The notes under the pieces: generated by a model
Told to the model about the DNA's origin: nothing
Database searches by the model: none
The model's input: the letters and a program-made list of their open reading frames with translations, nothing else
DNA from: an uncultured Gammaproteobacteria bacterium
GTDB taxonomy: Bacteria; Pseudomonadota; Gammaproteobacteria; JAJDYQ01
DNA: 64,000 nt
Assembly: GCA_942491945.1 (NCBI GenBank)
Contig: CALODD010000085.1
Span: 4,311 to 68,310 of the forward strand
Reading direction: 5' to 3'
Translations under genes and position numbers: made by a program
Part shown: in pieces, positions 4,494-44,588 of the stretch
Layout of the letters: each line of letters begins with the position of its first letter
How positions within the stretch are numbered: the first letter of the stretch is position 1

Positions 4494-5321
4494 TTATTCT
4501 GAAAGGCCGTTACCATGCTGTTCATCTGTCGTAACCAGGATAACTTCATCAACACACTGGCGTGATACATCAAACGTCTTTTCACCGACCTGTTTTACGG
4601 CAACACCATCTGCAAAAATGCCAACCTGATCAAGAATGACACGCTTATTCTGTATTAATGCATGATGCATTGATGGCGCATCCACCGGTTCAACACCGAT
4701 CACTTTAATCTCGGGATGATGATGCTTAATCCATGCACCCATCCCTGCAACCAGTCCACCACCACCGACAGGAATAAATATCGCATCGGGTAATTGATCC
4801 ATTTGCTCTAATATCTCCTGAGCTACAGTTCCCTGGCCTGCGATGACTTCATAATCATCGTAAGGATGGATATAGGTTGCGCCAGTTTTGGCTGATAGCT
4901 CATAGGCATGTGCCGATGCGTCATCATATGTGTTGCCATGCAGCACAACATTACCGCCTAATCGCTCTACGGCATTCACCTTAATATCTGGCGTTGTTTT
5001 AGGCATAACGATGGTGGCATCGATTCCCATGCGTGTGGCTGATAAGGCGATACCTTGTGCATGGTTACCCGCAGAAGCGCCGATAATTCCCTTCTCACAC
5101 TCTGCCGACGTCAATCCAGAAATTTTGTTGTAGGCGCCACGTATCTTGAACGAAAACACCGCCTGCTGGTCTTCGCGTTTGGAATAGACATTATTCGACA
5201 GGCGCTTTGACATTAACGTCATGTGATCTAGTGATGTCTTGACCGCCACATCGTAGACTCTGGCGCGCTTTATATTTTCTACGATTTCACTCAAAGTCAT
5301 TGTGGTTACGCCGGATTCCAT
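4494..5321 (-). pseudogene. ilvA: Threonine ammonia-lyase (IlvA-type), 3'-truncated. Only most of the PLP catalytic domain remains.
   Basis: 275-aa ORF with the PLP-lysine region FSFKIRGAYN and the glycine loop IPVGGGGLVAG. Homology ends after ...VDEVILVTTDE (about nt 4521) and runs into the unrelated tail QHGNGLSE*. The rest of the catalytic domain and the regulatory domains are missing, and this coincides with the GC breakpoint. Confidence 0.8.
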
Positions 5322-5403
5322 TGCTGTTATAGCTGCCCATGTCTGTTAGACATATTCGACACAGGGTATCATTGCGGCTTTTGAATACAAAGAGGGAAAT
5401 GTC

Positions 5404-6063
5404 ATGTCGCAGGATGCAGGCAAAAAAATGGCAGCAGAGGCCGCCATGGAATTCGTCGAGGCAGGCGAGATTATCGGTGTAGGCACCGGCTCAACAGTCA
5501 ATTTTTTCATCGACTATCTGGCTGAAGTTAAGCATAAAATCGATGGTGCAGTCTCAAGCTCGGTTGTCTCTACCGAACGCATGGAAGCACATGGAATCAA
5601 AGTTTATGACCTGAATGACGTCAATGGCATGTCTATCTACGTCGATGGCGCCGATGAATCTACTCGCCACCTGCATCTGATTAAAGGCGGCGGTGGCGCA
5701 CTAACCCGTGAAAAGATTGTAGCTGCAGCGAGTGAGAAATTTGTCTGTATTGCAGATGACTCAAAACTGGTTGATCGCCTGGGAAAATTCCCATTACCTG
5801 TCGAAGTCATTCCCATGGCTCGCAGCATGGTTGCACGTAAATTAATGAAATACGGTGGCCAGCCGGTACTGCGTGAAGGTTTCATCACCGACAACGGCTG
5901 TGAAATTCTGGATTTGCAGGGTCTGGATATCATCGATCCCGTTGCTATGGAACATGAAATCAACCAGATTCCAGGTGTCGTCACAGTTGGGCTGTTCGCC
6001 GAGCGCGGTGCAGACGTTCTATTACTGGGTGCAGAAAGCGGCGTGACTCGTATCGATCCATAA
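5404..6063 (+). CDS. rpiA: Ribose-5-phosphate isomerase A
   Basis: 219-aa ORF with RpiA signatures [13 protein letters not shown] and [14 protein letters not shown]. Confidence 0.95.
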
Positions 6064-38666: not shown

Positions 38667-39638
38667 TTAATTTATCAACTCGAAATAAACGAGCACTGTG
38701 CGCTGCATAAAGTGCTCATTGTTATCGCTAATCATGAGGAAGCGATTTCCTTTATGCCGGGTTAAACCTTCATAATTATCCACTGGCACAGCATCACCAA
38801 CCTTAATATTCATTAGCGGCTCAATCTTGCCTTTCTCATTCTGTTTAATTGAAGCACGTTGTAGTTCAATCTCCCAGGTAGGTGCCAACAAACGGTGCTT
38901 TCTCTTCAGCAGCAACACCTGACCATCATCAAGTATTTCAATCGCACAGACCGAAGCATCTCTATACGAATCACGCGGCAAACTGAATTGCCCGCCGTCG
39001 GCAGCATATAAAACCACCTCATCCCATTCCGCATCTTCAAGCGGTTTTTCAGGCACCGTTAATACACCATGATCAGGATGAATCGTGACGGACTCCAATG
39101 CCTTGGTTCGTCTGTAATAGCTGGCATGTTTTTCTAAATAGCTAGGCAGCTTTCCACGTTTAAGAAATGTGCCGTCCGGTTTATGCCATTGCAATCTTGG
39201 CTTGTTCTCAAACGACACCAGTAGCTCCTCATCACCCGGTATTCCGTTATTCGCATTAACAATATGTAAACCTTCGCTATCGCTATACGGATAAGACAGA
39301 TCATCACCAGCAACATCTTTCAAGGCATAGGCATTCGCTAAGCGAATACCCGAGATAGCTTTTTCCGTAAATGTCAGGTCAAAATGAAATATCGAGCCAT
39401 GATCGCTGATGGCGTACAACCGTTGTTCGTCTTCACTCCAGGCCAGACCAGATAACTCAACCATTTCCTGATCATTCATTTCCGTTGTAAACAGGTGATG
39501 CGCGGACATGAATCGTATCTTCCCTATCTCAATTGCCTGACCATTTTCATCCACCACATCGATAACTTCATAGTCGAGCGCCTGTGCCTCAAATGAAGTT
39601 ATAAGCAGGAAAATCGCCAGATAGATAAAACGCCGCAT
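38667..39638 (-). CDS. Secreted beta-propeller-like protein, esterase-like-activity-of-phytase family (tentative)
   Basis: 323-aa ORF with a signal peptide. Strings such as ELSGLAWSEDEQRLYAISDHG and YEGLTRHKGNRFLMISDNN match my memory of PF13449-type proteins. Confidence 0.5.
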   Translation of the reverse strand: MRRFIYLAIFLLITSFEAQALDYEVIDVVDENGQAIEIGKIRFMSAHHLFTTEMNDQEMVELSGLAWSEDEQRLYAISDHGSIFHFDLTFTEKAISGIRLANAYALKDVAGDDLSYPYSDSEGLHIVNANNGIPGDEELLVSFENKPRLQWHKPDGTFLKRGKLPSYLEKHASYYRRTKALESVTIHPDHGVLTVPEKPLEDAEWDEVVLYAADGGQFSLPRDSYRDASVCAIEILDDGQVLLLKRKHRLLAPTWEIELQRASIKQNEKGKIEPLMNIKVGDAVPVDNYEGLTRHKGNRFLMISDNNEHFMQRTVLVYFELIN

Positions 39639-39639
39639 A

Positions 39640-40707
39640 CTAAAACATCTCCATCTGACTTGAGGACTTTCGCGGAGGCTCGAATATTGAAGTATTTAAT
39701 GGCGGCAAGTGGTTTTCAATCTCTTGTTTTTTTACAACTTGTTGGAAACGCTGTGCAATCAAATCAGCGAACACACCACTCCCCGTTTGACGGGTACCCC
39801 ACTCTGATCGATACAACTCACCGTTATGCATATCCTGCATACGTTTTAAAACGTGTTCTGCCTTCAATGAATAATTCATTTGTAACCACTCAGCGAACAA
39901 CTCCTTTAACTCCAATGGCAACCGTAACATCACGTAGTTTATCGATAGTGCCCCAGCCTTATGGCATACGCCCATGATCGATTCCAGTTCATGGTCTGTT
40001 AACACGGGCATAACGGGAGCGATCAAGATACCCACGGGTATATTATTTTTCCGCAAAATCTCAATAGTTTGTATACGTCGTAATGGTGTTGCCGCCCTCG
40101 GTTCCATCGCACGACATAACTGCTTATCTAAAGTAGTCACCGATATAAGCACATTAACCAGGTTCTGTTCTGCTAATTCACGCAGAATATCTAAATCACG
40201 TTCAATCAGTGATGACTTGGTAATAATCGATACTGGATGTTTACATTCTGCAAGAAATATTAATATTGACCGCGTTAATTTCGTGTGGCGTTCGACAGGC
40301 TGATAGGCATCCGTATTTGATCCCAGAGTAATCGCAGAACAGCAGTAGTTCTTTTTCGCTAATTCTTCCGCTAATCGTTCAACTGCGTCCGGTTTATGAA
40401 AAATCTCCGTTTCGAAATCCATGCCTGCTGAATATCCAAGCCAGGCATGCGTTGGGCGAGCAAAGCAATATACACAGCCATGCTCGCAGCCTTTGTAAGG
40501 GTTTATTGATTGATCGTAGGGGACATCGGGTGACTGATTCCGCGTGATGATTGTTTTAGAGTGATCGACGTGTAGCCGTATTTTAACTTTAGGCTCGTCC
40601 TGAGGCATCCAACCATCATCTATCGCAACGTGGATTTGTGATTCATAACGCCCGTCACGATTACTCAGGGCTCCACGGCCTTTTTGAGGTGTGCTCGTGC
40701 TAGGCAA
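39640..40707 (-). CDS. Radical SAM protein, PA0069 family
   Basis: 355-aa ORF with [13 protein letters not shown] at the N-terminus and the cluster motif [12 protein letters not shown] (CX3CX2C). Confidence 0.8.
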
Positions 40708-41954: not shown

Positions 41955-42401
41955 TTATACCCGCTTACGGGCTAAACGCCTCAATGAATGCGCCAGACGC
42001 TCATCGGAAACCGTATCCGCGGAGGCATCCACCAAATCACGCGTCGATTCACTCAGGTCACGATGCACCTGCCGAAGTTGCACATCCTCCTCAGCGAGGT
42101 CCTTCAACGGCCGATTTTTTACCACAATTCCTTGTATATCGGCCTGCCCGCAGGACTTGAGAATCGCCTGGATCATACGCTGCTGCATCCGCACATGCGT
42201 CGCCCATTCTGCGCCTTTCACATGAATAATCGCTCGTTTCCTGGTATCGATATTCACCAGTTTCACGACAGTATTAATTGATAAAGGCAGCTGCTTTTCC
42301 AGACATCGATTTAGTTTAGAGAGCTCCATCGCCCGATCCCGAATCTGGGAAAGCGTACTACGACGAACAAAGGCATCTGCGCGTTTTTGAGACATTATCA
42401 T
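41955..42401 (-). CDS. DUF721/DciA-like protein
   Basis: The track ORF starts at 42485 in AT-rich sequence. The likely start is ATG 42401 or 42395 (MIMSQKRAD...). The core LNRCLEKQLPLSINTVVKLVNIDTRKRAIIHVKGAEWATHVRMQQRMIQAIL fits the DUF721 pattern from memory. Confidence 0.55.
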   Translation of the reverse strand: MIMSQKRADAFVRRSTLSQIRDRAMELSKLNRCLEKQLPLSINTVVKLVNIDTRKRAIIHVKGAEWATHVRMQQRMIQAILKSCGQADIQGIVVKNRPLKDLAEEDVQLRQVHRDLSESTRDLVDASADTVSDERLAHSLRRLARKRV

Positions 42402-42552
42402 ATTAGACCACGATAGAAATTTAGTATCGACACAAATATAAATTAGCAAACAGTAATTAACTGAACGCAGTAACAAAAAACACAAAGCAAAAACAACACA
42501 ATTATCTATAGTATAATTGCCGTTAATTTATACACCTTTCCGGGCAGCCCAT

Positions 42553-43629
42553 ATGAGCAAAGATCATCATGACGAACCTTTCGACGAAGGAACGCTAATC
42601 AAGCTTGAAATATACAAGAACTATTTAACCTCATGGCTGCCTGTTTTTCTAATGGTTAAGAGCATAAAAAACAATCACGTAAACATCTTTGATTTTTTCT
42701 CCGGACCCGGTAAAGATAAATCAGGCTTAGATGGCAGCCCAATTATCGCTCTAACTGCGGCAATAGACTTTACTCAAATAGCTAAAGATAACGGAAAAAC
42801 CATCAACTTATACTTCTTTGATCAGAAGCTAGAAAAAATAAACCGCTTAAATCAAGTAATTAGCAACACCAACTATGATAGAGATACGATACATATCACC
42901 ACTGAAGTTATTGAATTCGATCAAGCATTAGAAAAGTACGAAGATATTATAAGGCGAGACCCCAATTTATTATTTATGGATCAAACAGGAATAAAAGCGA
43001 TAACTGAAAATACATTAAAGAAACTCTTAAGCTTTAAATATACAGACTTACTTTTTTATCTAGCATCATCTTATGCAAAACGCTTTTCAAACACGAAAGA
43101 ATTTAGAAAATACTTAAATATTGAACCGGGAGAATTTAGAGACATTTCTCAAAATAATATCCATAGATTCATGTGCCAGTACTACCAATCAATAGCAGAC
43201 AACCTTATTGAATACTACTTTTGCCCCTTTTCAATTAAAAAGAACGCGAATGTCTATGGATTAATATTCGGGAGCCGGAATCATACCGGTCTGCAGAAAT
43301 TTCTTGATGTTGCCTGGAAAATTGATCCTCACAGAGGCGAAGCAAATTTTGATATAGACAATGAACAAATATCAGAACAACCTTCATTATTCCCTCATTT
43401 ACCTCAAAAATTAACGATGTTTGAACAAGAATTAGAAGCACAAATACTAAAAGGGACAATTAAAAGTGATGGAGAGGCATTCAAACACACATTGCAGGCT
43501 GGCTTTATTGGAAAGCATGCAAAAAAGGTCATAAAGAGCCTAATACGAAATAAGAGGATTTACATGGATAAACAACCTCGATGTTCAAAAGAAGCTTTAG
43601 CTATGCCGAGAGGCATTAAATTACTGTAG
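42553..43629 (+). CDS. Three-Cys-motif partner protein TcmP-like (methyltransferase-like fold suspected)
   Basis: 358 aa from ATG 42553; the track start at 42517 is TTG. The N-terminus HDEPFDEGTLIKLEIYKNYLTSWLPVF, then VNIFDFFSGPGKD and LLFMDQTG, match the family from memory. It is adjacent and convergent to a DUF5131 gene, which is the defining context of that family. Confidence 0.6.
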   Translation: MSKDHHDEPFDEGTLIKLEIYKNYLTSWLPVFLMVKSIKNNHVNIFDFFSGPGKDKSGLDGSPIIALTAAIDFTQIAKDNGKTINLYFFDQKLEKINRLNQVISNTNYDRDTIHITTEVIEFDQALEKYEDIIRRDPNLLFMDQTGIKAITENTLKKLLSFKYTDLLFYLASSYAKRFSNTKEFRKYLNIEPGEFRDISQNNIHRFMCQYYQSIADNLIEYYFCPFSIKKNANVYGLIFGSRNHTGLQKFLDVAWKIDPHRGEANFDIDNEQISEQPSLFPHLPQKLTMFEQELEAQILKGTIKSDGEAFKHTLQAGFIGKHAKKVIKSLIRNKRIYMDKQPRCSKEALAMPRGIKLL

Positions 43630-44367
43630 AATTTTTAGGCATGGAATCCCAGGTTCGCCCTTGCAACAATCGCCCATTAGCTTTTTTATGCCTTTTCACA
43701 CCATCGGCACCCCAACCGCCCCATTGTTTAAAGAAAAATGCCACATTCTCCGAGTCACATTGAGATTTGATATTATCAACCCACAACTGCTTCATCGGGC
43801 GAGCATTTTTTCCTGACTCACCACCCACGATAACCCAATGCACTCCAACCAGACTGAATACCCCTAAATCCTCTAATAAAGGCTCTACTGACAAAAATCT
43901 TATCCGCGCATCAATTTCTGTCAAATACTTAATACGAGGCAGCCCGTATTTTTTATCTTCGACAGAAACGCCCAGCCAAACATTATTTGGGACAGGTCGT
44001 TGACTAAAATAGTCTGGTAGACGCTCAGCTCTTTTAGTTAGTATTTGATACGTGTGATGAGGCGTATCAGAAATAACTTGAAATACTTCGTCCAGAAACG
44101 AGTCTGAAACATCTTCATGGAACAAATCGGACATACTATTAACGAAGTATACTGTTGGCTTCTTCCTTTTCAGAGGCTTATCGATCTCAATCTATATGAA
44201 TGAACATTAAGCTCAAAGCCATTTTCGTAGCCACCAGCTTTCATGGCTTTTAATCGTTTAGCCATATTTTCAGCATAGCAATACTTACATCCCGGAGACA
44301 CCTTTGTGCACCCTGTAACCGGGTTCCATGTTTGCTCGGTCCATTCAATTTCTGACTGACTAGACAT
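43616..44367 (-). pseudogene. DUF5131 / phage Gp37-Gp68-family three-Cys protein, frame broken by a 1-nt deletion near 44187-44189
   Basis: ORF 44170..44367 starts [42 protein letters not shown] 43616..44134 continues with SMSDLFHEDV...ILTKR...FLSVEPLL...VIVGGESG...FFFKQWGGW. The length of 752 nt is 2 mod 3. Reading AGA TTG (G)AG ATC GAT restores ...[28 protein letters not shown]. Confidence 0.8.
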
Positions 44368-44511
44368 ACTTAATTATAGAATTAGTAATGTTTGGATTCT
44401 ACGAATTATGGGGCACAACCACGATATCTAATGGTTTATTTTCAACTAGGCACCCAGAATATCAACGCATCGAGTGAATTTAAGGGGTAAAACATGTAGA
44501 CACAAAAATAA

Positions 44512-44588
44512 TGGTGGCTATGGGTGGACTTGAACCACCGACCCCAGCATTATGAATGCTGTGCTCTAACCAGCTGAGCTACATAGCC
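44512..44588 (-). tRNA. tRNA-Met (anticodon CAT, elongator type), CCA encoded
   Basis: The hand-folded cloverleaf is GGCTATG/CATAGCC acceptor, GCTC/GAGC D-stem, CAGCA-TTCATAA-TGCTG anticodon arm, and GGTGG-TTCAAGT-CCACC T-arm. It closely resembles E. coli metT from memory. Confidence 0.92.

Follow-up and report, generated by a model that had tools for sequence, protein, structure and literature searches.

At the 3' end of a tRNA-Met gene in the window considered here, a stretch of 64,000 nucleotides from an uncultured Gammaproteobacteria bacterium (contig CALODD010000085.1 of assembly GCA_942491945.1, positions 4,311 to 68,310), lies a compositionally foreign cassette of the type catalogued as PDC-M30, in which the radical-SAM (S-adenosylmethionine) gene is inactivated. 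The cassette consists of two convergent genes: tcmP, which encodes TcmP, an intact three-Cys-motif partner protein, and a gene for a DUF5131 protein, the radical-SAM component, which is frameshifted. This description is firmly supported. On balance, we consider it probable that the cassette is a horizontally acquired and recently inactivated TcmP/radical-SAM pair, and as such a candidate for nucleic-acid-directed defence of the PDC-M30 type.

When compared with profile libraries, the protein encoded by tcmP scores 134.2 bits against TIGR04474, for which the curated cutoff is 53, and 377 bits over its full length against the PADLOC model PDC-M30A (PDLC04568). The DUF5131 protein, once its reading frame is repaired, scores 356.7 bits against PF07505, the family of phage Gp37/Gp68 (cutoff 28.9), covering profile positions 1-243 of 243, together with 369.8 bits over its full length against PDC-M30B (PDLC04569) and 331.6 bits against PHROG 2045, a family of unknown function. 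The PF07505 and TIGR04474 scores exceed their cutoffs by a wide margin and are not due to chance, and these searches bear out both family names that had been proposed in an earlier, sequence-only reading of the locus. The features described in that reading, namely the gap between the neighbouring genes, the two convergent genes and their 14-nt overlap, the N-terminus of the DUF5131 protein with its CX6CX2C motif and the peptide strings quoted from both proteins, are likewise all present in the sequence. Its proposal of an undescribed system, on the other hand, does not hold, since the pair is already catalogued in PADLOC-DB v2 as the phage-defence candidate PDC-M30 (genes A and B), and NCBIfam defines TcmP by this very adjacency to a PF07505 protein, which the window pair displays. 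PF07505 and TIGR04474 are nevertheless names without an assigned function. The main text of the preprint from which the PDC candidates stem does not discuss M30, and no experimental validation of PDC-M30 was found in the literature searched. The same literature yielded passing mentions in gene tables and no biochemical or functional study of the pair, in agreement with the earlier statement that no biochemical role had been established for it. Like PDC-M30, the window copy is a two-gene system of TcmP and DUF5131, and its relatives lie within restriction and defence loci, the kind of setting by which the candidate was first defined; it differs in having a frameshifted B gene. The sister candidate, PDC-M41, pairs the same DUF5131 protein with a TcmP that is short (273-293 aa, some 70-85 residues fewer than the 358 of the window protein).

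The lesion in the DUF5131 gene is a 5-nt insertion. It shifts the reading frame so that a stop is reached at 44170-44172 after 65 codons, with the rest of the protein encoded in another frame, and the gene is split into open reading frames (ORFs) of 65 and 172 aa instead of being intact; a mention of a 'frame-repaired' pair in the sequence-only reading had hinted as much. In a DNA alignment with four intact relatives the five extra bases are found in the window alone. On the basis of this alignment the insertion replaces a 1-nt deletion as the lesion, and the family scores are unaffected by the change. When AGATC is removed, a 248-aa ORF results, in which the spacing RL-DK-PL equals that of the relatives (HDYRL-TQ-PLKRKKP). 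In an alignment of 44 sequences, 58 columns are invariant, and the repaired protein preserves every one of them; the cysteines of the CX6CX2C motif (C20, C27 and C30) are invariant both in this alignment and in one of 45 sequences. The window TcmP, for its part, preserves each of the 40 columns that do not vary in an alignment of 40 sequences. Because the invariant residues are all kept in both proteins, the lesion appears to be recent, an error of assembly being the less probable explanation. Because DUF5131 is frameshifted, this copy is very probably non-functional. The window gene is also devoid of a purine-rich ribosome-binding stretch 5' of its ATG, which the four relatives have.

The two genes fill the 2110-bp interval between a DciA-like gene and tRNA-Met. 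The guanine plus cytosine (GC) content of this interval runs at 0.30-0.36 in tcmP and 0.38-0.44 in the DUF5131 gene, against 0.45-0.53 in the flanks. Taken as whole genes, the values are 0.344 and 0.415, respectively, so that the 25-35% G+C given in the sequence-only reading is accurate for tcmP and overstates the dip for DUF5131. The 2070-bp islet, with a GC content of 0.370, is the minimum of the window (mean 0.481, standard deviation 0.044), an equally low value being reached in just 0.08% of windows of the same size, and the third-position GC (GC3) of tcmP is 0.33 compared with 0.38-0.52 in the flanking genes. In two further loci of the family, L088 and L090, the pair is GC-poor relative to its flanks too. 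The islet is bracketed by a 13-nt direct repeat, GACACAAATATAA on the left and GACACAAAAATAA on the right; the two copies agree at 12/13 bases, with the merged form TTAT(A/T)TTTGTGTC, and the left copy is regarded as the left-hand boundary of the insert. When the left intergenic region is shuffled, a match this good to the 13-mer abutting the tRNA arises with P ~0.004, and none of the 1933 other 13-mers of the islet matches the left intergenic region as well. The three marks of a tRNA-associated island, atypical composition, adjacency to the 3' end of a tRNA and a flanking direct repeat, are thus found together here; the foreign composition, the tRNA adjacency and the lack of an integrase had been pointed out beforehand and are all upheld.

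Comparison with other genomes addresses the same question from the side of the flanking genes. The linkage of ychF with tRNA-Met (pth-ychF-tRNA-Met) is widespread among 80 gammaproteobacterial-type YchF loci, and the TcmP/DUF5131 pair is present in 0/80 of these ychF/tRNA-Met loci of other Gammaproteobacteria, an absence by which a housekeeping pair conserved at this locus is excluded and which says nothing on close relatives. The nearest genome by YchF (82% identity) is a gammaproteobacterial metagenome-assembled genome, N2M-Bin_5, whose contig JAPHTU010000314.1 (L001, 11158-11235) stops one base past tRNA-Met. Such an end would fit an assembly break at a variable site and is uninformative when taken alone. 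A query with the DciA-like protein returned no match in genome or metagenome contigs.

The AlphaFold2 model of the window TcmP is confident (pLDDT 89.5, pTM 0.88) and comprises a class I SAM-methyltransferase fold from residue 1 to ~260 and a winged helix at ~285-350. The C-terminus reaches 24.6 bits against the Pfam family 'GMT-like wHTH', below the cutoff of 27, and nothing on the meaning of this name was found in the searched literature. A Foldseek search of the model against the Protein Data Bank (PDB) gave 45 matches with E <= 1e-3, of which almost all are class I SAM-dependent methyltransferases, headed by histamine N-methyltransferase and the tRNA m2,2G methyltransferase Trm1 (E ~5e-6, TM 0.34-0.46, identity 11-13%), and comparison with a viral structure library likewise returned a generic SAM-methyltransferase answer. 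At the level of sequence, TcmP matches no methyltransferase family in Pfam, a profile search against PDB sequences gives 0 matches for it, and neither window protein has a solved relative that is detectable by sequence, even with a profile. The methyltransferase motif I put forward in the sequence-only reading is corroborated by the fold: the string FDFFSGPGKD (family form FDFFxGxGxD) follows strand 1. The acidic residue D90 forms the end of strand 2, and D143-Q144-T145-G146 stands at the end of strand 4 as motif IV, for which the family, phage members included, has D-(Q/P)-x-G. Judging by the placement of motif I, D90 and D143 on the model, the SAM-binding signature of TcmP is intact. The position assigned earlier to motif IV was therefore correct, whereas the likeness to RlmJ suggested along with it is not supported: TcmP gives no match to an RlmJ-family model in Pfam or NCBIfam, no RlmJ is found among the top 50 Foldseek matches, and the (D/N/S)PP(Y/F/W) motif of amino-methyltransferases does not occur in it. 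From class I SAM-dependent methyltransferases in general TcmP differs in motif IV, which does not have the aromatic residue of DPPY or DPFG, and in its additional C-terminal winged helix.

The structure of DUF5131 was modelled on an intact homologue with 74% identity (pLDDT 79.7) rather than on the window protein. The best fold match of this model is spore photoproduct lyase (SPL), with five entries (best E 7.7e-3, TMq 0.51, 12% identity), followed by lipoyl synthase and viperin. In the RadicalSAM.org resource, DUF5131 is a radical-SAM subgroup that shares a megacluster with SPL (PMC9477430). The weak fold scores agree with this placement in the radical-SAM superfamily. Members of the superfamily carry a 'GGE' motif for SAM binding, and a GGESG string is invariant in the DUF5131 alignments of 44 and 45 sequences; by its sequence, this string fits the 'GGE' motif. 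The cluster motif of DUF5131 is CX6CX2C and not the canonical CX3CX2C, and an NCBIfam scan gave no match of DUF5131 to an SPL family model. SPL (PDB 4FHG, 4FHC) resembles DUF5131 in having an N-terminal three-Cys cluster motif and a GGE-type motif, and it acts on DNA. It differs by its CX3CX2C motif, by its size (~340 residues as opposed to ~250) and in that DUF5131 needs a partner protein. Prokaryotic viperins are also radical-SAM enzymes and have a role in anti-phage defence, although as a fold match for DUF5131 they are weaker; they belong to a different family with the canonical CX3CX2C motif, their products are chain-terminating nucleotides, and they are not known to have a partner with a methyltransferase fold.

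The association of the two proteins was surveyed in 92 TcmP loci drawn from plasmids, genomes, metagenomes and viral contigs. DUF5131 adjoins TcmP in 68 of the 92. In 53 of these 68 it lies downstream of tcmP on the same strand, so that most pairs are co-directional with tcmP first, unlike the window pair, which is convergent with a 3' overlap; in eight loci it lies downstream in convergent orientation and in seven upstream on the same strand. As for the loci without DUF5131, six are on contigs too short to tell and 18 have room for a partner. In all 17 examined among these 18, a CX3CX2C radical-SAM gene is found immediately 3' of tcmP. This alternative partner (L084, L103, L127-L166) has 241-263 aa and the N-terminus MNV(I/V)YEPKGRAREYS.LACNLY.GCTHGC.YCYAP, and it is distantly related to the SPL-like families PA0069/Rv2578c. 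With these two types of partner, TcmP is obligately associated with a small radical-SAM enzyme, which can be either DUF5131 or a canonical CX3CX2C protein. There is no PADLOC model for the CX3CX2C partner, while the TcmP that accompanies it scores 375 bits on PDC-M30A; the TcmP plus CX3CX2C variant would be overlooked by current defence-system annotation. A further arrangement is seen on a TARA metagenome contig (L144, 785-3714), where one DUF5131 gene (2612 to 1872) has a TcmP gene on either side: a short one of PDC-M41A type that is co-directional and upstream (3714 to 2833) and a long one of PDC-M30A type that is convergent (785-1888). This locus suggests that one radical-SAM enzyme may serve two TcmP partners.

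Both families are large and widely distributed. A word-indexed search gave 936 matches for TcmP and an exhaustive search 4103 clusters at 50% identity, among which the window protein, whose identity to other TcmPs does not exceed 44%, represents a singleton cluster of its own; DUF5131 has at least 8000 relatives. Members occur in bacteria, on bacterial plasmids, on archaeal (haloarchaeal) plasmids and in temperate phages. The partners diverge at very different rates: in pairwise comparisons the DUF5131 proteins are 68-78% identical and their adjacent TcmPs 19-43%. A conserved enzyme with a highly variable specificity component is likewise characteristic of restriction-modification systems (HsdS of type I), and the TcmP/DUF5131 pair is often embedded in such loci, yet it has no nuclease domain. 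In type II restriction-modification systems, pairs of convergent genes that overlap are frequent. A toxin/antitoxin-like or restriction-like logic by which the toxic enzyme is lost first finds no support, as internal stops occur in 3/94 TcmPs and 1/64 DUF5131 proteins.

With regard to the convergent layout, the DUF5131 proteins of seven of the eight convergent loci are the closest to that of the window in the survey (66-70% identity), the eighth (L095) being at 55%. The gene is intact in 7/8 of these loci; the exception is L088, which has an in-frame stop. The closest DUF5131 proteins in the databases, from Rhodospirillum centenum and Dechloromonas (71-74% identity), also have convergent TcmPs. 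The overlap is an identical 14 nt in the Dechloromonas locus (L178) and 4-26 nt in other convergent loci, with none in L095. Since the closest DUF5131 relatives share the convergent layout and are mostly intact, it is a trait of the clade, which temperate Gordonia phages have in common with it, and not a sign of damage, and a rearrangement linked to decay is ruled out by the eight other loci and by these closest relatives with intact genes. The disrupted copy in L088 (VAPF01001588.1, ~5401-6042) carries a TAG at the invariant Trp of KQWGG, with an intact TcmP alongside, and is a second DUF5131 copy of the convergent clade that has been disrupted independently.

That relatives of the pair would be found in mobile and defence contexts had been anticipated and is confirmed by a number of loci. 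For instance, the gene of a type ISP restriction enzyme is overlapped at its end by tcmP on the Leptospira biflexa plasmid p74, a TIR-domain protein adjoins the pair in a locus of the convergent clade (L086), and the pair of L088 stands among toxin-antitoxin modules. In the L144 locus the pair has a deaminase and a fusion of reverse transcriptase and protease as neighbours, besides the second TcmP; on viral contig L167 it comes first after an integrase gene that lies next to dusA, and in R. centenum it adjoins a methylase/ResIII/AIPR cluster downstream of phage tail genes. Among the neighbours in general, the top PADLOC matches are components of type IIG, type I and type II restriction-modification systems, MADS genes and the DISARM gene DrmMI, and in a Pfam summary restriction-modification domains likewise rank highest, accompanied by nucleases and UmuDC-like genes.

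The claim that both gene families are phage-associated stands for DUF5131, which is found in 181 phage records, mostly of Mycobacterium and Gordonia phages; TcmP occurs in just a few phage groups. A near absence of TcmP from phages is, however, partly an artefact of sensitivity, because the 'methyltransferases' of Gordonia phages are TcmPs when examined with profile models: BLAST with a phage TcmP gives 4 records, a bad undercount of the phage TcmPs. In the Gordonia phages Fairfaxidum and Bosnia, TcmP is convergent with DUF5131 and overlaps its 3' end; the TcmPs of the two phages were identified by HMM and profile comparison (109 and 125 bits) and are annotated as 'methyltransferase' or hypothetical. 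Several Gordonia phage records have a 'methyltransferase' beside DUF5131 that turned out to be TcmP where tested. In Fairfaxidum and Bosnia the integrase lies on one side of the pair and the immunity repressor on the other; TcmP follows the repressor directly, downstream and on the same strand. The genes at that position in the Gordonia phage CarolAnn are co-transcribed with the repressor, expressed during lysogeny and active in heterotypic phage defence (PMC6426606). The Fairfaxidum and Bosnia TcmPs thus hold the position of the CarolAnn defence genes (gp43/gp44), which, like lambda RexAB, exemplify prophage-encoded defence cassettes. The proteins encoded there are unrelated to TcmP and DUF5131, and any lysogenic expression or defence function of the pair is putative.

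A mechanism that would accommodate these observations can be outlined. The cassette would have inserted directly downstream of tRNA-Met, where the 13-nt repeat brackets it. DUF5131 would be its conserved catalytic engine, a small SPL-like radical-SAM enzyme whose CX6CX2C motif is predicted to hold a [4Fe-4S] cluster and which would cleave SAM to a 5'-deoxyadenosyl radical. TcmP, with its SAM-binding Rossmann fold and a putative nucleic-acid-binding domain in the form of the winged helix, would act as a fast-evolving specificity or targeting subunit, presumably under diversifying pressure, and pick out the target of the radical chemistry, a nucleic acid that is most likely DNA, the presumed outcome being a modification or lesion that blocks an invading phage. 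Through the convergent 3' overlap each transcript would be antisense to the other gene, which may balance their expression. In this genome, the 5-nt insertion that splits DUF5131 would represent a recent loss of the system.

Several points weigh against this interpretation. PADLOC-DB v2 contains the PDC entries as 'phage defence candidates' obtained by 'guilt-by-embedding', and they are unvalidated (PMC10855318). The fold matches of DUF5131 are weak, none reaching E <= 1e-3, and the D-Q-x-G motif IV of TcmP is without the aromatic residue of base-flipping amino-methyltransferases. Moreover, RNA is a conceivable target of TcmP, given that its fold neighbours include the tRNA-modifying enzymes Trm1, TYW4, CmoA and MnmM. 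As to the neighbourhood, the 141 ORFs within 4 kb of TcmP pairs match 389 PADLOC models and 150 ORFs neighbouring ychF, used as a control, match 22 (E <= 1e-5), a difference that is indicative and overstates the enrichment, because the control is a housekeeping locus and the PADLOC models are redundant; many neighbours of the pair in the Pfam summary are ordinary housekeeping or metabolic genes. No integrase or other mobility gene lies between the repeats, which enclose the two genes only, and since no close relative was found, no empty site has been seen, so that insertion is argued from composition and a short repeat. Finally, an error of assembly might in principle account for the five extra bases.

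Among other explanations, the one that fares best is that of a counter-defence module, in which the pair, serving the mobile elements that carry it, would put an unusual base modification on the DNA of its own element or host and shield that DNA from restriction, or supply a second epigenetic mark for neighbouring restriction systems. The methyltransferase fold and intact SAM-binding signature of TcmP are compatible with such a role, as are the frequent occurrence of the pair in or beside restriction-modification genes, its presence in temperate phages and on plasmids, and the label 'methyltransferase' that phage annotators give to the partner. We nevertheless regard it as unlikely: the slot downstream of the repressor in Gordonia phages, which is lysogenic in CarolAnn, is ill suited to guarding virion DNA during lytic growth, many chromosomal copies, including that of the window, have no cognate restriction gene, and the combination of a variable TcmP with a conserved enzyme fits target recognition in an arms race at least equally well.

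It is improbable that the region is native, that is, an old AT-rich intergenic stretch with a decaying pair, where the repeat arose by chance and nothing was inserted. Such an origin would account for the missing integrase, for the want of an observed empty site or a close relative, and for a repeat that is short and agrees at 12/13 positions. However, the islet is the GC minimum of the window, the repeat stands exactly at both edges (with the P value of ~0.004 given above), the closest homologues of TcmP and DUF5131 alike belong to unrelated lineages and mobile contexts, and the family-invariant residues are all kept, which makes the decay recent.

Decidedly improbable, too, is a housekeeping or accessory pair devoted to RNA modification, in which TcmP would methylate a nucleotide of tRNA or rRNA and the radical-SAM enzyme would modify that position as well or one next to it. 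Pathways that unite radical-SAM enzymes and methyltransferases do exist for tRNA, as in the case of wybutosine; the fold neighbours of TcmP comprise rRNA methyltransferases in addition to Trm1, TYW4, CmoA and MnmM, and the islet abuts a tRNA gene. Yet tRNA adjacency is the usual signature of an integration site and not a functional link, and the pair is absent from 80/80 comparable loci and foreign in composition. It is scattered over lineages as different as Leptospira, Cytophaga, Rhodospirillum, Dechloromonas, Deltaproteobacteria and Gordonia phages, in varied contexts, its TcmP is hypervariable, unlike enzymes that recognise conserved RNA, and a gene of the pair is broken both here and in L088. 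Least probable of all is a DNA-repair system, in which an SPL-like radical-SAM enzyme would reverse a DNA lesion, and TcmP would assist it by binding to damage or to DNA. DUF5131 does find its best structural match in SPL, the alternative TcmP partners are similar to the SPL-like PA0069/Rv2578c families and UmuD/UmuC-like genes recur among the neighbours, but the fold match is weak and may reflect just a shared radical-SAM core, a repair enzyme has no need of a hypervariable partner, UmuDC genes are common cargo of mobile elements, and the neighbours are dominated by restriction and defence genes, not by repair.

The remaining features of the region are of secondary importance, and the coordinates of all principal elements are collected in Table 1. 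Promoter and terminator scans of the islet performed no better than scans of shuffled sequence, promoter-like sites being rarer than expected (5 compared with 7.7 in shuffled sequence). The TATAAT hexamer upstream of tcmP was noticed by eye, was not called by a consensus promoter scan and constitutes a weak lead. In an Rfam scan of the islet the tRNA alone exceeded the threshold, with two sub-threshold matches on the antisense strand of the tRNA. One is to the Helicobacter antisense RNA HPnc0260 (44393-44549 on the plus strand, 44.2 bits, gathering score 59), which overlaps the antisense strand of tRNA-Met and is probably spurious. Outside the islet, the window encodes a radical-SAM protein of the PA0069 family (39640-40707 on the minus strand; NF033668, 475.9 bits). 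Its gene, which is of native composition, shares 8 nt at its start with the end of ispG; the protein falls into the broad SPL-like group that also takes in the canonical radical-SAM partners found with TcmP elsewhere. A 323-aa ORF at 38667-39638 (minus strand) has a signal-peptide-like N-terminus, MRRFIYLAIFLLITSFEAQA, and gives no NCBIfam match.

Table 1. Positions of the cassette, its flanks and associated sequence elements in the 64,000-nt window, with one phage homologue (last line) numbered in its own genome.
Feature	Position	Strand	Remarks
DciA-like gene	41955-42401	minus	Pfam DciA, 26.8 bits (cutoff 24)
Left 13-nt direct repeat, GACACAAATATAA	42429-42441		28 nt outside the DciA-like start codon
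TATAAT hexamer, possible -10 element	42512-42517	plus	35 nt 5' of the tcmP ATG
tcmP, intact 358-aa three-Cys-motif partner protein	42553-43629	plus	TIGR04474, PDC-M30A
3' overlap of the convergent coding regions	43616-43629		14 nt; each stop codon lies inside the other gene
DUF5131, part 3' of the lesion	43616-44182	minus	VNSMSDLFHE, ILTKR, FLSVEPLL, VIVGGESG, FFFKQWGG
5-nt insertion AGATC	~44183-44187	minus	placement ambiguous by a few bases
DUF5131, N-terminal part	44188-44367	minus	motif IEWT..WNP..GC-x6-C-x2-CYA
Promoter-like TTGATA-16-GAAAAT	44438-44465	minus	~70 nt 5' of the DUF5131 start; weak
Right 13-nt direct repeat, GACACAAAAATAA	44499-44511		abuts the tRNA-Met 3' end
tRNA-Met(CAT)	44512-44588	minus	ARAGORN; Rfam RF00005, 72.7 bits; islet starts at its 3' end
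TcmP of Gordonia phage Fairfaxidum (L173)	4737-5933		annotated 'methyltransferase'

Since the cassette looks dead, the locus itself is of little weight, and it is the family that matters more. A tentative and still rather doubtful extension would be that the TcmP plus CX3CX2C variant, which is uncatalogued, forms a single widespread class of immunity together with PDC-M30 and PDC-M41, shared by bacteria and temperate actinophages, in which TcmP, as a hypervariable subunit with a methyltransferase fold, directs an SPL-like enzyme drawn from interchangeable engines to nucleic acid, the genes of one clade are convergent and coupled through antisense, and the effect is brought about by radical-based modification or damage of DNA. 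The two interchangeable types of partner, the contrast between a conserved enzyme and a hypervariable partner, and the phage copies downstream of a repressor all provide handles for experiment, and Gordonia lysogens offer a natural test system for the pair. Should the mechanism outlined above prove right, radical chemistry on nucleic acid would join the known anti-phage strategies.

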